NCBI RefSeq assembly: GCF_003334385.1
Contig: NZ_QOWN01000006.1
DNA: 64,000 nucleotides
Origin: Escherichia coli
Lineage (GTDB): Bacteria; Pseudomonadota; Gammaproteobacteria; Enterobacterales; Enterobacteriaceae
Reading direction: 5' to 3' (one strand)
The notes under the pieces are model-generated. The model was not told the origin of the DNA. It ran no database searches and saw only the letters and a program-made list of their open reading frames with translations. The translations under genes were made by a program, and so were the position numbers. Below are positions 1 to 55,669 of this stretch, piece by piece; position 1 is the first letter of the stretch, and every line of letters starts with the position of its first letter.

Positions 1-498
1 GGCACTGCCGGTTCTAAACATCGGGCGATTCTGGCTATCGATGATCTGAATACGTAGACCTTCCTGGACCAGATCGATTTTGAGATGGGGACGTAACGCC
101 CGCAGTTTCGGATCGGACTCTATCAACTGGTCGAGATCACCCCGCAATTTCCGCAATCGACTTTGCTCCATGCGTTTTTTCAGCTCTTCGATGTTCGGCT
201 GCTTATTCACTTCCCCCTGGCTTTGGGTGTAATCATCACCACCGCCGGGAATTGGGCTTTCACTATTAGAAATGCGATCGCCGCCCGTAACCGCAGTCGC
301 CAGTGGAGTCCGGAAGTACTCCGCAATCTGAATCAGCTCTTTTGGGCTGGAGATGGAGATCAGCCACATCACCAGAAAAAAGGCCATCATCGCAGTCATA
401 AAGTCGGCATAAGCAATCTTCCACGATCCATGTGCTGCCCCGTGGCTTTTGGCTTTGCGTCGTTTGACGACAATAATCGGATGCGCTTGATTCTTCAT
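1..498 (-). CDS. motB: Flagellar motor stator protein MotB, 5' portion (first 166 codons; 3' end lies beyond window start)
   Basis: Reverse complement of 481-498 reads ATGAAGAATCAAGCGCAT (MKNQAH), the MotB N-terminus; start overlaps motA stop (ATGA coupling); in frame to position 1. Confidence 0.9.
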
Positions 499-1382
499 GC
501 TTCCTCGGTTGTCGTCTGTTGTTGCGGATTTTTCACCGCACGCACATGCTCTTCCAGTTCAATAAACGACGGACGTTCGCTGGAATAGAGCGTTTTGCGA
601 CCAAACTCAACGGCGATAGGCGGTGCGTAACCGTTCAGATTAGAAAGCAGAGTGACTTTGACGCACTGCATCATTTTGCTGGTTTCGGCGCTTTTCTGAC
701 GTAAAACAGTCGCTAATGGGGAAATAAATCCGTAAGCCAATAAAATGCCGAGGAAAGTCCCCACCATCGCATGTGCGATAAGCGCACCCAGCTCGGCGGC
801 AGGACGATCGGCTGAACCTAACGCGTGAACGACCCCCATTACAGCCGCAACAATACCAAACGCCGGAAGTGAGTCCCCGACCAGCGCCAGACTGTTCGCC
901 GGGACTTCTGCCTCGCTTTCGTGCGTCTCAATCTCTTCATCCATCAGAGCTTCGATTTCGAAGGTGTTCATGTGACCGCTGATAATCAGGCGCAGATAAT
1001 CGACGATAAAATCAAGCATGACGCTATCCGCGAGGATGCGTGGGTAGCTGGCGAAGATCTCGCTCTCACGGGGATTTTCAATATCACGTTCCAGCGAAAA
1101 CATCCCCATCTGCCGCGATTTCGCCATCAACCGATAAAGCAGAGCCAGCAGATCCATATACATTGCTTTGGTGTATTTGGAGCGACGAAACAGCAACGGC
1201 AGCGCCTTCAGCGTGCCTTTAATCGCTTTGCCATTATTGCCGACGATAAACGACCCAATCCCTGCACCGGCAATAATCACCAGTTCAGCGGGTTGATAGA
1301 GTGCTCCAAGGCTTCCACCGGTCATCAAATAACCGCCGAAAACTGTACCGAGAACAACCAGGTAACCTAATAAGATAAGCAC
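495..1382 (-). CDS. motA: Flagellar motor stator protein MotA (295 aa)
   Basis: ORF translation matches MotA in length and sequence; position downstream of flhDC. Confidence 0.96.
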
Positions 1383-1449: not shown

Positions 1450-1483
1450 CAAAAAAAAGCAGCGGTACGTCGTTACCGCTGCT
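1450..1483 (-). terminator. Intrinsic terminator after flhC (10-bp stem AGCAGCGGTA/TACCGCTGCT followed by T8 on minus strand)
   Basis: Perfect inverted repeat 1459-1483 with A8 on plus strand (U-tract on minus transcript). Confidence 0.75.
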
Positions 1484-1543
1484 GGAATGTTGCGCCTCAC
1501 CGTATCAGTTAAACAGCCTGTACTCTCTGTTCATCCAGCAGTT
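1450..1543 (-). ncRNA. motR: Candidate MotR sRNA (motA 5'UTR-derived, sigma28-dependent)
   Basis: Sigma28-type promoter inside flhC 3' end (1552-1578) plus terminator at 1450-1483 would yield a ~95-nt RNA; published MotR is described as derived from the motA 5'UTR (recalled). Confidence 0.45.
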
Positions 1544-2087
1544 GTGGGATAATATCGGCAGGATTCTGGGAAAGTTTACGTCTTTTTACTGCCCGGGATG
1601 GCGGTTGACATAAGCTGCAGGCAAAGCTGCCAACAGGCTGGTGAGCGTGGGTAATAAAATTGCCGCCGCAGCAGTTGCAGCTGGAAAGTTGCAGTAATCC
1701 ACTTTCAACAAACCGCACCAATGTCCAGGCACGGGTTAATGCCAGCAGTGGTCCTTCTTCTGCTTGTGGGCACTGTTCAAGGTATAAACGGTAGGCTTTG
1801 ATCACCGCATCGACGCCATTACACAAACCGGTTTTCAGTAAAAACTGCCATGCATTACAGAACATCGAAGCATGAACGTTTTGTTCCCAGGTCATAAACC
1901 AGTCGGTTGAGAATGGCAGCATGCCTTTCGGCGGTGGGCTTCCGCGCAGTTCTTTATAAAGTTTTATCAGGCGTCCGCGACTTAACTGTGTTTCGCTTTC
2001 CAGCATCTGCAAACGAGCGCCCAGGGTGATCAATTCCATTGCCAGCTGAATATCCCGCGCTTCCTGAACAATGCTTTTTTCACTCAT
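1509..2087 (-). CDS. flhC: Flagellar master regulator FlhC (192 aa)
   Basis: ORF translation matches FlhC including the C-terminal Cys cluster; adjacent to flhD. Confidence 0.96.
1552..1578 (-). promoter_or_regulatory. Sigma28 (FliA) class 3 promoter for motAB-cheAW: TAAACTTT-N11-GCCGATAT
   Basis: Minus-strand match to sigma28 consensus TAAAGTTT-N11-GCCGATAA located within the 3' end of flhC. Confidence 0.65.
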
Positions 2088-2089
2088 GA

Positions 2090-2440
2090 TCAGGCCCTTT
2101 TCTTGCGCAGCGCTTCTTCAGGCTGATTAACATCATTCAGCAAGCGTGTTGAGAGCATGATGCCGGTATGAATTTGCTGGAGATCGTCAACGCGGGAATC
2201 TTGCGTCAACTGAGTAATCGTCTGGTGGCTGTCAAAACGGAAGTGACAAACCAGTTGATTGGTTTCTGCCAGCTTAACCATTTGCGGAAGAGTCAGTGCC
2301 GCTAACGTTGTCGCCATTTCTTCATTTATGCCGAGACGAAACATAGCGGACGCTTTGTCCTGAACAATCAAACGCTGTGCAAGTAGTAAATATGACAAGT
2401 TGATGTCATAAATGTGTTTCAGCAACTCGGAGGTATGCAT
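2090..2440 (-). CDS. flhD: Flagellar master regulator FlhD (116 aa from MHTSELL; ORF extends to 2449)
   Basis: ORF translation matches FlhD; start trimmed to the annotated [12 protein letters not shown]. Confidence 0.95.
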
Positions 2441-3219
2441 TATTCCCACCCAGAATAACCAACTTTATTTTTATGCGGTTTCACCGCACCCCGTGATGTC
2501 GCCGGGAAGCCCCGGTAAAAAATAATTAGCATTAGAATAGTTGCGATAAGCTGCAATAAGCAGAACCACCTTTTTGGTTTAATATGTCCTTACAAATAGA
2601 AATGGGTCTTTACACTTATCTAAGATTTTTCCTAAATCGACGCAACTGTACTCGTCACTACACGCACATACAACGGAGGGGGGCTGCGATTTTCAATAAT
2701 GTGTGATGCAGATCACACAAAACACTCAATTACTTAACATAAATGTATAAGTCATACTTTTGTTTTGGGTGTATTTCAATCTGTTAAAAAGTTTTTCGCT
2801 ACGCTAGCAAGCAAAAATGAAACAGGAATAATCGAAATGGGATGTTGCGCACAGTCAAAATAACTCACCGTAAATAATCATCTGCTATAAATAATCACTT
2901 TCATGCAATACCAGATAAGCTATTTTTAAACAGACACTTACCGCACAACAAACTAATTAAATACAAAGAAAGGCAACAATCAACTTAATGTTAATGAAAT
3001 GTTTTACATATATTAACCACTTGTTTAATGCGGAGAATCAGTACACTATTTTCTTATAATTACATTTGAAATTATATGATCACCGGGAGTGATTGATTAA
3101 TTGTCTTTACTAATAATCAGGCTAATATTTACCTGTTTGACCGAGTTGGGATTGCGTCGTTTCTCCATTAGGAGTAAAGCTTTAATGTCACCTGAAGTTC
3201 ACAGAATAAGGAACAGGTT
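2441..3219. promoter_or_regulatory. flhDC promoter, long 5'UTR and AT-rich upstream regulatory region; divergent uspC promoter
   Basis: About 780 bp AT-rich non-coding region between divergent flhD and uspC; known regulatory hub in E. coli; no IS element present. Confidence 0.7.
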
Positions 3220-3648
3220 ATGAGCTATAGCAATATTCTTGTCGCTGTTGCGGTTACACCGGAAAGTCAGCAACTGCTGGCAAAAGCGGTATCTATCGCC
3301 AGGCCAGTAAAGGGACACATCAGTTTAATTACTCTCGCTTCCGACCCGGAAATGTACAATCAATTAGCTGCGCCGATGCTTGAAGATTTACGCAGCGTGA
3401 TGCAGGAAGAAACGCAAAGCTTTCTTGATAAGTTAATTCAGGATGCGGGGTATCCCGTTGACAAGACGTTTATTGCCTACGGTGAGTTAAGCGAACATAT
3501 TCTGGAAGTATGTCACAAGCATCATTTCGATTTGGTGATTTGCGGTAATCACAATCACAGTTTCTTTTCGCGAGCATCCTGCTCGGCGAAAAGAGTTATT
3601 GCCTCAAGTGAGGTCGATGTGCTGTTAGTTCCACTTACGGGAGATTAA
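3220..3648 (+). CDS. uspC: Universal stress protein C (142 aa)
   Basis: ORF translation matches UspC/YecG; position between flhD and otsA. Confidence 0.93.
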   Translation: MSYSNILVAVAVTPESQQLLAKAVSIARPVKGHISLITLASDPEMYNQLAAPMLEDLRSVMQEETQSFLDKLIQDAGYPVDKTFIAYGELSEHILEVCHKHHFDLVICGNHNHSFFSRASCSAKRVIASSEVDVLLVPLTGD

Positions 3649-15240: not shown

Positions 15241-15291
15241 CGACACTGCTTATTGCTTTGATTTTATTCTTATCTTTCCCATGGTACCCGG

Positions 15292-15378
15292 AGCGGGACT
15301 TGAACCCGCACAGCGCGAACGCCGAGGGATTTTAAATCCCTTGTGTCTACCGATTCCACCATCCGGGCTCGGGAAGAA
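15292..15378 (-). tRNA. leuZ: tRNA-Leu (87 nt)
   Basis: Reverse complement matches E. coli leuZ tRNA sequence as recalled (GCCCGGATGGTGGAATCGGTAGACACAAGGGATTTAAAATCCC...CCA). Confidence 0.95.
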
Positions 15379-15390
15379 AGTGGAGGCGCG

Positions 15391-15464
15391 TTCCGGAGTC
15401 GAACCGGACTAGACGGATTTGCAATCCGCTACATAACCGCTTTGTTAACGCGCCAAATTCTTCA
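15391..15464 (-). tRNA. cysT: tRNA-Cys (GCA), 74 nt
   Basis: Reverse complement matches E. coli cysT (GGCGCGTTAACAAAGCGGTTATGTAGCGGATTGCAAATCCG...). Confidence 0.95.
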
Positions 15465-15507
15465 GGCCTTTCAGCCAGACATCCGCTTGACGCCGATGTC
15501 TTTTAAA

Positions 15508-15584
<77 letters not shown>

Positions 15585-25419: not shown

Positions 25420-25545
<126 letters not shown>

Positions 25546-25575: not shown

Positions 25576-27288
25576 TTAACCCTGCAGCAGAGACAGAACC
25601 TGCTGCGGTACCTGGTTAGCTTTTGCCAGCACGGAGTTACCTGCCTGCTGAATAATCTGCGCTTTCGACATGTTGGACACTTCGGTCGCATAGTCGGCGT
25701 CCTGAATACGGGACTGCGCTTCGGACAGGTTGGTAGTGGTGTTGTTCAGGTTGGTGACTGCGGAATCCAGACGGTTCTGCACGGCACCCAGGGAAGAACG
25801 GAATTTGTCTACGGATGCGATAGCATCGTCCAGCGCTTTCAGCGGATCCGTGGTCGCTTCAGATTTACCTGTAGCTTCAGTGGTCAGAGAGCCGTCAGCC
25901 GCTTTATACAGAGCCGCGCCGTCATCATCCAGAATATTGCCGTTAGCAAATTCGTGATAAGTTTCTGTGACAGTCTTGTTGGCCGCAGTCGTCAGTTCAC
26001 CCTCAGCACCAATATTTACGGTCGCTCCACCTGTAGTAGCAGTTACTGCACCATCAGCGGCAACGTCATAAGACTGTGCGCCGTTAGCTACGGTATAAGC
26101 CTGACCGGTTAACGCAGTGTTCATATCTTCGGCGGATACCGTCGCGCCCTTAATATCCACATTGTTGCTAACCTGGGTGAAGTCAACGGTCATGCCGCTG
26201 CCGAAGGTAATCTTCGCATCAACTGCATCATGACCATTCGCACCGTTGAAAATACCGTCCAACGTTGCCGCGGCTGGGCCGCCGGCCTGGTTTTTCGTCA
26301 GGTTACCGTCAGCACCAATGTATAAAGCATCGCCATTAGTATCCGTCAGGGTACCATCGCTGGCAATTTTAACTTCCTGAGCGCTACCACCGATGGAGAT
26401 CTGAGCCGTGTTATCGCCGTTTGCTGCATAGGCTTTCAGAACATCAGCAACTTTAGTTGAGCCCGCAGTACCATCACCATTAGTAAGTGCGGTTGCGTCA
26501 AATGAATAAGACTTGCTGGTTGCGTTGTAGGTATATGCAGTAGAAGCCGCTACGCCTAACCCATTGTTTGTGCCAGCATAACCGCTAATAGTGCTGCCGC
26601 CACTAACGCTAGCCAGCACATCGGTAGCTGTTGCTGCATTAAAGGTAGTAACAGTAGATTTAGTCCAGGTGCTATTGCCACTGACAACTGCACTTTGGGA
26701 GAAGCCCGCAGCGGTCAGATCTGCTTCAGTGGCTTTTGCATTATCAACAGCGCCTTTACCGTTGACGTTGAAGCTGGTCAGCTTCAGTGTAGAAGAGTCG
26801 ATTTTTTTCAGGTCAATCGTGATGGTTTCACCATCATTTGCGCCCACCTGAATTTTCATTGAACCGTCTTTGGACAACACATTCACGCCATTGAACTGGG
26901 TCTGACCAGATACGCGGTCAATTTCATCAAGACGAGATTTGATTTCGTCCTGGATGGAGTCCAAGTCAGAATCGGAGTTAGTACCGGTAGTGGCCTGAAC
27001 CGTCAGTTCACGGATACGCTGTAAGTTGTTGTTGATTTCGGACAGCGCGCCTTCGGTGGTCTGCGCAACGGAAATACCGTCGTTGGCGTTACGTGCAGCC
27101 TGAGTCAGGCCTTTAATGTTAGAAGTAAAACGGTTAGCAATCGCCTGACCCGCGGCGTCATCCTTCGCGCTGTTAATACGCAAGCCAGAAGACAGACGCT
27201 CGATAGAACTCGACAGCGCAGACTGGTTCTTGTTGATATTATTTTGAGTGATCAGCGAGAGGCTGTTGGTATTAATGACTTGTGCCAT
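25576..27288 (-). CDS. fliC: Flagellin FliC (570 aa) with conserved termini and a variable central domain
   Basis: N-terminus MAQVINTNSLSLITQNNINKNQSALSSSIERLSSGLRINSAKDDAAGQAIANRF and C-terminus ...VLAKANQVPQQVLSLLQG are canonical; central region is Thr/Ala/Gly/Ser-rich. Confidence 0.97.
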   Translation of the reverse strand: MAQVINTNSLSLITQNNINKNQSALSSSIERLSSGLRINSAKDDAAGQAIANRFTSNIKGLTQAARNANDGISVAQTTEGALSEINNNLQRIRELTVQATTGTNSDSDLDSIQDEIKSRLDEIDRVSGQTQFNGVNVLSKDGSMKIQVGANDGETITIDLKKIDSSTLKLTSFNVNGKGAVDNAKATEADLTAAGFSQSAVVSGNSTWTKSTVTTFNAATATDVLASVSGGSTISGYAGTNNGLGVAASTAYTYNATSKSYSFDATALTNGDGTAGSTKVADVLKAYAANGDNTAQISIGGSAQEVKIASDGTLTDTNGDALYIGADGNLTKNQAGGPAAATLDGIFNGANGHDAVDAKITFGSGMTVDFTQVSNNVDIKGATVSAEDMNTALTGQAYTVANGAQSYDVAADGAVTATTGGATVNIGAEGELTTAANKTVTETYHEFANGNILDDDGAALYKAADGSLTTEATGKSEATTDPLKALDDAIASVDKFRSSLGAVQNRLDSAVTNLNNTTTNLSEAQSRIQDADYATEVSNMSKAQIIQQAGNSVLAKANQVPQQVLSLLQG

Positions 27289-34171: not shown

Positions 34172-34563
34172 TAAGCCAGGAGACTATTGATCAATAATAC
34201 TGCGTCATAAGAAATCTCTATTAGACAAAGTAGACGCTCCTTCCACATGCGCCACAAGAAACCTCTATTCCAGTGACACAATTACGCCTGATTATTTCCC
34301 TAGCCCGGAATATGAATAAAAACATCAACAAAGATTAAATTATTCAAACGTTACTGTTGCGTCTGCGGTCGTAACAACATCCGACGTGGTGATGTGTATC
34401 AAATGAGGCCTCTGATGATCAGAGGGTTTATCGCGTATACGGATCGTGGATGGCAGAAAACTTTCAGAATCAGGTTTCCATTTTAAACCAGAAATTGAGT
34501 GAGTTTGCCCCATCCATGCCCCACGCGGTGAGATCGGATGTAATTAACAACAGGTTACAAAAC

Positions 34564-47090: not shown

Positions 47091-47177
47091 AAATCCCGAC
47101 CCTGAGGGGGTCGGGATGAAACTTGCTTAAGCAAGAAGCACTTAAAAAATTCGTTACACCAGGAAATCTGATGTGTT
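47091..47177 (-). ncRNA. dsrA: DsrA small regulatory RNA (87 nt)
   Basis: Reverse complement reads AACACATCAGATTTCCTGGTGTAACGAATTTTTTAAGTGCTTCTTGCTTAAGCAAGTTTCATCCCGACCCCCTCAGGGTCGGGATTT, matching DsrA as recalled. Confidence 0.93.
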
Positions 47178-47356: not shown

Positions 47357-49881
<2,525 letters not shown>

Positions 49882-55415: not shown

Positions 55416-55643
55416 ATTGGATGAGCCAGTCAAGACTCACTCATTTTTTGAACAAATAGATAATTTTTGCGCAACGGCAGTGAATACAGGAAAAATCGTT
55501 TTGAGCGATTTTATTTATCTTTGATATCGGCTTTATTAATTCATTTAATCAATATATTAGCACTGATTACAATTATACCTTTTTATTATTCTGTGTCATG
55601 ATGCTTACGTTATTAGCCTTTTATCGTCTTGTTTATATTTTTT

Positions 55644-55669
55644 GGGCCGGCATGATGCCGGCTTTTTTT
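55644..55669 (+). terminator. Orphan plus-strand intrinsic terminator (GGGCCGGC-ATGAT-GCCGGC followed by T7) with no upstream plus-strand gene
   Basis: GC-rich hairpin 55644-55662 followed by TTTTTTT 55663-55669; nearest upstream plus-strand CDS is absent. Confidence 0.6.

Follow-up and report, generated by a model that had tools for sequence, protein, structure and literature searches.

The flhDC-uspC locus

The window, i.e., the whole stretch of 64,000 nucleotides of E. coli DNA that was analyzed, contains flhD and flhC on the minus strand, followed by motA and motB', and the divergently transcribed uspC, downstream of which lie otsA, otsB and araHGF (ORF list). The coordinates of flhD (2090-2440) and uspC (3220-3648) are the same in the RefSeq annotation of E. 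coli VG48B2, a strain that is collinear with the window and differs from it by two bases in the first 20 kb. The original prediction had described an AT-rich region of approximately 780 bp upstream of flhD, and this description proved accurate: the region measures 779 bp, its limits of 2441 and 3219 are exact and its G+C content is 35.2%. The features of the locus are as follows:

1-498, minus strand: motB' (ORF list)
495-1382, minus strand: motA (ORF list)
1451-1545, minus strand: MotR sRNA region, overlapping the 3' end of flhC; 100% identity to the MG1655 annotation
1509-2087, minus strand: flhC coding sequence, 192 aa, intact (ORF list, translation and RefSeq annotation of the collinear VG48B2); DNA identical to MG1655
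2090-2440, minus strand: flhD coding sequence, 116 aa, ATG at 2440, intact (ORF list, translation and VG48B2 RefSeq annotation); DNA identical to MG1655
2419-2638, plus strand: AsflhD antisense RNA region; 100% identity to the MG1655 ncRNA asflhD (2677-2896 of the MG1655 locus sequence)
2441-2638, minus strand: flhD 5' UTR, 198 nt, start at 2638; identical to MG1655
2441-3219, no strand: flhD-uspC divergent intergenic regulatory region, 779 bp, uninterrupted
2645-2673, minus strand: putative sigma-70 promoter flhDp, with -35 TTGTAT (2673-2668), a 17-bp spacer and -10 TACAGT (2650-2645)
2702-2717, no strand: CRP site TGTGA-N6-TCACA, predicted from sequence, centre 71.5 bp upstream of the start
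3121, no strand: private SNP (G; A in other genomes), located 99 bp from the uspC ATG and 483 bp from the flhD start, upstream of both
3220-3648, plus strand: uspC coding sequence, 142 aa, ATG at 3220, intact (ORF list, translation and VG48B2 RefSeq annotation)

The G+C content of the flhD-uspC region compares with 49.5% for the whole window, and falls to 28.5% between 2901 and 3100. Only 1% of the 779-bp segments within the 64 kb are equally AT-rich; the araF-ftnB spacer is similar in this respect (34.7% G+C).

Two independent anchors agree in placing the flhD transcription start at 2638. The asflhD annotation of MG1655 ends at 1,978,395, which corresponds to window position 2638, 198 nt upstream of the flhD ATG. 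In addition, the IS5 target TTAA, placed at -99 to -96 from the flhD start in PMC5100188, coincides with the TTAA at 2734-2737. Read from the sequence relative to this start, the putative flhDp hexamers match the consensus at 8 of 12 positions, from which we infer a weak promoter. A consensus sigma-70 scan of the region yielded no match of at least 9/12 and was therefore uninformative for locating flhDp, which was placed from the annotated start. The absence of such a match fits a weak, activator-dependent promoter, and the predicted CRP consensus site near -71.5 lies upstream of it. Soutourina and colleagues reportedly mapped the flhDC CRP site at -71.5 in 1999. In published K-12 work, flhDC is activated by cAMP-CRP (PMC3634460) and the flhD leader is targeted by the sRNAs ArcZ, OmrA/B, OxyS and McaS (PMC3634460), as well as by AsflhD/RNase III (PMC9600491).

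The flagellar genes in the window (motA, flhDC, fliZ, fliA, fliC, fliD, fliS, fliT and fliE to fliR) are all intact ORFs. Over 1-20 kb the window is best matched by VG48B2, and over 22-46 kb by WP7-S17-ESBL-04, FDN-9/24 and EcE.CRE.COL. As fliC (25576-27288, minus strand) encodes a 570-aa flagellin and the closest genomes are those of environmental, animal and human isolates, the source strain is not K-12.

Several other observations were made along the window. VG48B2 shows only 88-90% identity to it around fliC-fliD, with its own fliC annotated as fragments, and WP7-S17-ESBL-04, the best match for 22-46 kb, diverges again beyond about 47.4 kb; this change of best match along the sequence points to a recombination mosaic around the flagellin locus. 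AP022177 displays indels relative to the window beyond about 49.9 kb. The diguanylate cyclase gene dgcQ (yedQ; 48187-49881, minus strand) is an intact 564-aa ORF in the window, whereas both closest relatives have it annotated as a pseudogene, VG48B2 because of a frameshift and WP7-S17-ESBL-04 because of an internal stop. In the window, yedK is followed directly by fliE (34172-34563), whereas the yedK/fliE junction of VG48B2 is occupied by an island with an IS200/IS605 transposase, ybcM, ybcL and emrE, making this a variable spot beside fliE-R. A borderline Rfam match to the ES036 (CssrF) sRNA was found in the fliA-fliC spacer (25470-25511, plus strand; 38.1 bits versus a gathering threshold of 37.6). 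The other Rfam matches were expected ones, i.e., DsrA (47091-47177), RseX (55580-55669) and three tRNAs (15285-15584).

An uninterrupted flhD-uspC region with empty IS targets

With a 979-bp query across the region, matches were obtained in 5,423 of the 5,426 complete E. coli genomes; among the matches listed, the one-piece ungapped alignments to this query spanned 978-980 bp. The region therefore carries no insertion or deletion with respect to the species-wide form and, since the alignment to IS-free genomes is ungapped and of the same length, insertion of an IS of any family is excluded. Alignment to both IS-free and IS-containing flhD upstream sequences, as the original prediction had proposed, gave the same picture: the region has the length of the IS-free form and is collinear with MG1655, the sole structural difference being the 768-bp IS1H that is present in MG1655 and missing here.

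The region was also searched with a library of K-12 elements only, consisting of IS1, IS2, IS3, IS5, IS30, IS150, IS186 and IS911 fragments from the MG1655 annotation, with IS4 outside the set. By BLAST, these eight elements gave no significant match in the flhD-uspC region, the only hits being chance 8-11-mers (E >= 0.2), and no match anywhere in the 64-kb window. The terminal 20-mers of each library element matched the region no better than they matched shuffled sequences. Furthermore, the ORF list holds no ORF of more than 40 aa in the region, and those of 40 aa were without an NCBIfam match; nor did Rfam, at gathering thresholds, place any family inside it. The longest exact direct and inverted repeats were both of 10 nt, and repeats at least as long occurred in 43% and 80% of dinucleotide-preserving shuffles, respectively. 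The original claims that the region is continuous, that it holds no transposase ORF and that it has no terminal inverted repeats are thus borne out by the gapless alignment, by ORFs of at most 40 aa with no family match, and by IS ends and repeats at shuffle level.

Two sets of candidate repeats were considered and rejected. Pairs of 13-nt near-repeats lying 775 and 751 bp apart (2474/3249 and 2451/3202), distances that are close to the length of IS1 plus its duplication, were dismissed as target duplications because one copy lies inside uspC, the copies are imperfect, there is no IS1-like DNA between them and their size is at chance level. The best inverted pair, 17 nt at 76% complementarity, was likewise rejected as the ends of an IS or MITE, being at chance level and within sequence gaplessly common to thousands of genomes. 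Neither IS terminal repeats nor target-site duplications, the signs named in the original prediction as counting against it, were found in 2441-3219.

In-silico PCR with the primers flhDCF3 and yecGR1 (PMC1174868) gave a product of 1,531 bp for the window, the published size for the IS-free allele being 1,525 bp (PMC1174868). The same primers gave products of 2,307 bp for the MG1655 IS1 allele, 2,308 bp for strain B-1109 and 2,730 bp for the IS5 allele.

As the original prediction had stated, this region is a hotspot for IS insertions that activate motility in laboratory strains, which is documented for K-12 (PMC5100188, PMC1174868, PMC5493358). IS1 and IS5 insertions as far as -476 are described as raising flhDC expression and motility in K-12 (PMC5100188, PMC1174868, PMC5493358). 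Eight insertion positions were mapped from other genomes, and in the window each of them is present once and unoccupied. The distal IS5 positions published for K-12, at -166, -315 and approximately -476, correspond to YTAR tetranucleotides present at 2804, 2953 and near 3110, which are likewise single-copy and empty. The target sites, with their occupants elsewhere, are:

2727-2735, no strand: empty single-copy target CAATTACTT, duplicated around IS1 in the near-isogenic B-1109
2734-2737, no strand: empty IS5 target TTAA (-96 to -99), filled elsewhere by IS5 (W3110, MC4100, DH10B and further K-12 strains) or by ISKpn26 (two clinical isolates)
2738-2745, no strand: empty target CATAAATG, which flanks IS1H as a duplication in the MG1655 reference
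near 2762: IS1-associated rearrangement in WGS1363
2775-2783, no strand: empty target TTCAATCTG, duplicated around IS1 in NCTC9008
2804-2807, no strand: empty CTAG at -166, published IS5 position (PMC5100188, citing Lee and Park)
about 2817-2826: IS1 in NCCP12480
about 2846-2855: IS1 in EC19
2953-2956, no strand: empty CTAA/TTAG at -315, published IS5 position in motile MG1655 stocks (PMC1174868 and PMC5100188)
near 3030-3043: IS1-associated rearrangement in OZ040994

The hallmarks of the IS-activated K-12-type allele, i.e., an IS1, IS3 or IS5 at approximately -90 to -480 together with a target-site duplication, are absent from the window. Those of the wild-type IS-free allele are all present, namely the divergent flanking genes, the 779-bp collinear length, the lack of IS DNA and the size of the PCR product. 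Taken together, the data confirm that the region 2441-3219 is IS-free.

An IS might nevertheless have been carried by some or all cells of the source culture and yet be missing from the sequence, through heterogeneity or assembly collapse. Mixed stocks are known for MG1655, with about half of the colonies of one ATCC stock carrying IS5 in the flhD upstream region (PMC1174868), and the near-isogenic B-1109 bears an IS1 at 2727-2735. A consensus sequence such as this one may thus be compatible with an IS-bearing subpopulation. We regard this explanation as very improbable, however, since the window passes cleanly through the site with no duplication, break or IS fragment, an assembler would as a rule end a contig at an IS instead of passing over it, there is no K-12-type IS in the 64 kb and about 97% of genomes are IS-free here. 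Still more improbable is that a former IS has been excised, so that the present sequence would be a revertant rather than the ancestral allele. Precise excision would be traceless, and nothing specific to the window speaks for it; moreover, no leftover target duplication or indel distinguishes the region from thousands of other genomes, and not a single less-motile revertant was obtained among 5,000 colonies descended from a motile IS5 variant (PMC1174868).

Occupancy of the hotspot across complete E. coli genomes

For a census of complete E. coli genomes, queries were used that are short enough for even an IS1 to split the match. The promoter-proximal half (2405-2835) matched 5,413 genomes. 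A single place accounted for 80% or more of the query in 5,271 of them, whereas this half was interrupted, i.e., found in two places, in 139 of the 5,413. The distal half (2800-3255) matched 5,419 genomes, being uninterrupted in 5,371 and split in 51. An IS-free region is therefore the species norm, seen in about 96-97% of complete genomes, and the IS-free state of the window is a correct yet ordinary finding.

Using a junction-specific query, the MG1655-type IS1 junction was found in 62 genomes, mostly MG1655 derivatives. The junction of IS5 at TTAA was found in 56, comprising 54 K-12 laboratory strains (e.g., W3110, MC4100, DH10B and MC1061) and two clinical isolates with ISKpn26. Approximately 118 of the 139 promoter-proximal interruptions (62 + 56) thus represent one of two laboratory K-12 junction alleles. 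Occupancy of the hotspot is very largely a feature of laboratory K-12, with scattered cases in other isolates.

The ISKpn26 element, a member of the IS5 family, lies at the TTAA corresponding to window 2734-2737 in the human clinical isolates 2021CK-01361 (NZ_CP107720.1) and NZ_CM190152.1. As this is the TTAA used by IS5 in K-12, the hotspot has also been struck outside K-12. Separately, 13 of the 5,426 complete genomes had no match to 2405-2835, and EC291 and EC06 matched only at its uspC-side edge; the missing flhD-proximal region in these few genomes suggests flhDC deletions in some isolates.

Regulation of flhDC and comparison with known alleles

Over positions 1-2745, base 2702 is the only difference between the window and MG1655, hence motA, flhC and flhD are identical to those of K-12, as are the 198-nt leader and the regions of MotR and AsflhD. 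At base 2702 the window has T where MG1655 has C, so that the promoter-proximal CRP half-site on the flhD strand reads TCACA, the consensus, as opposed to TCACG. The exact 61-mer around this base was found in 3,162 genomes for the window allele and in 403 for the K-12 allele; the window thus has the majority allele and K-12 a minority, slightly degenerate form. With flhD, flhC, the 5' UTR and the promoter otherwise equal to those of MG1655, the cis-regulatory region is wild type.

At position 3121 the window has G, whereas MG1655, VG48B2, strain 300709 and B-1109 all have A. None of the 4,081 genomes matched contained the exact 61-mer around this base, and none of the census genomes matched 2800-3255 at 100%. 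The G may be a private change (a singleton mutation) or a sequencing error. A small minus-strand hairpin (3135-3118) is made more stable by this G; the terminator-like structure, of five pairs with an 8-nt loop, was judged to be insignificant. At 3103 the window has G and MG1655 has A, the window agreeing with VG48B2, strain 300709 and B-1109. At 3405, within uspC, it has G where MG1655 has T, in agreement with VG48B2 and B-1109, and strain 300709 likewise shows no mismatch.

Based on these observations, we interpret the locus as the wild-type IS-free flhD-uspC region of a non-K-12 E. coli, with flhDC under species-typical cis control (probability approximately 0.93), a reading that no feature of the sequence speaks against. 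Continuity, the lack of IS DNA, the empty targets, a promoter and leader almost identical to those of K-12, and the base rate in the population are direct observations, and it is the absence of any insertion, footprint or indel that leads to normal species-typical control in cis. By analogy with published K-12 work, flhDC would be read leftwards from a single weak sigma-70 promoter starting at 2638, which would depend on cAMP-CRP bound at 2702-2717, centred at -71.5. The 198-nt leader (2441-2638) would then be acted on by sRNAs and by the antisense AsflhD. The AT-rich DNA at about 2720-3200 is probably the stretch from which H-NS, LrhA, OmpR, RcsAB and others repress the promoter, the regulators of the flhDC upstream region being listed in PMC5493358. 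In laboratory K-12, IS1 or IS5 inserted in this same stretch would relieve repression and raise motility.

The original inference of native flhDC regulation is upheld at the cis level, the sequence being wild type and the 431 bp nearest flhD being 100% identical in about one in five complete E. coli genomes, HS and B strains among them. We nonetheless considered whether the region, although IS-free, might not be native in the K-12 sense, with 2702T and/or 3121G altering the expression of flhDC or uspC and hence the control of motility. The former turns TCACG into TCACA within the CRP site, where the K-12 allele is the minority one. The latter is seen in no other matchable complete genome, and lies in a zone where IS elements as far as -476, according to the K-12 reports, still act. 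As the CRP-site allele differs from that of K-12 and there is one private SNP, expression need not equal that of IS-free K-12. On the other hand, 2702T is the common E. coli allele and hence itself the native state, it sits at the outer edge of the CRP half-site, a position that matters less for CRP recognition than the inner G and A bases, and 3121 may be a sequencing error. We therefore consider this alternative to be unlikely.

A related suggestion, which we put forward with somewhat less conviction, is that the degenerate TCACG half-site of K-12 may partly explain both the poor motility of IS-free K-12 and its ready gain of IS elements. If this were true, flhDC expression would be sufficient without any IS in strains with TCACA, such as the source of the window and most E. 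coli, and native motility could be predicted from the window allele. IS insertion at the hotspot would then be, in part, a K-12-specific compensation.

Returning to the reading of a wild-type IS-free region, its bearing on phenotype is limited. The original prediction had held that the intact region matters for interpreting motility. This holds insofar as flhDC is not IS-activated, but the IS-free allele does not predict motility, and IS-free K-12 stocks are in fact poorly motile (PMC1174868, PMC5493358). Motility is not readable from this cis region; in wild strains it would depend on trans factors outside the window, where the genes for the trans regulators lrhA, ompR, hns, crp and csrA are located. 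For the user of this genome, the finding means that flhDC is not IS-switched as in MG1655, W3110, MC4100, RP437 and DH10B, so that motility phenotypes are not to be extrapolated from those laboratory strains. The practical value of this is small. As the IS-free state is the default in approximately 97% of genomes, it is of little informative value; this would be different for a laboratory strain of K-12, which the source is not. It is the default state of the species at a thoroughly documented locus, and as such already known rather than a discovery.

Among known systems, the window most resembles the IS-free allele carried by the poorly motile BW25113 and MG1655 isolate 'B', and by most natural isolates, e.g., HS, with which it shares the flanks, the 779-bp length and the empty targets. 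From K-12 it differs at 2702 (T/C), 3103 (G/A), 3121 (G/A) and 3405 (G/T). The MG1655 reference allele, in contrast, has IS1H at 1,978,503-1,979,270 of NC_000913.3, with flanks that are 99.9% identical to the window on both sides; the window lacks both the 768-bp IS1 and the duplication of CATAAATG (2738-2745). In the allele of the W3110/MC4100/DH10B/RP437 type, IS5 occupies the TTAA at -99 to -96, whereas the window has the same target and flanks with the site empty. Finally, B-1109 (NZ_CP117971.1) is near-isogenic, with only a few SNPs relative to the window over 1-20 kb and 22-46 kb, yet differs in having an IS1 with a 9-bp duplication of CAATTACTT, 89-97 bp upstream of the flhD start (2727-3512 in the B-1109 locus sequence). 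Given that B-1109 is nearly identical over 44 kb and bears an IS1 at the hotspot, the site is usable in this genetic background.
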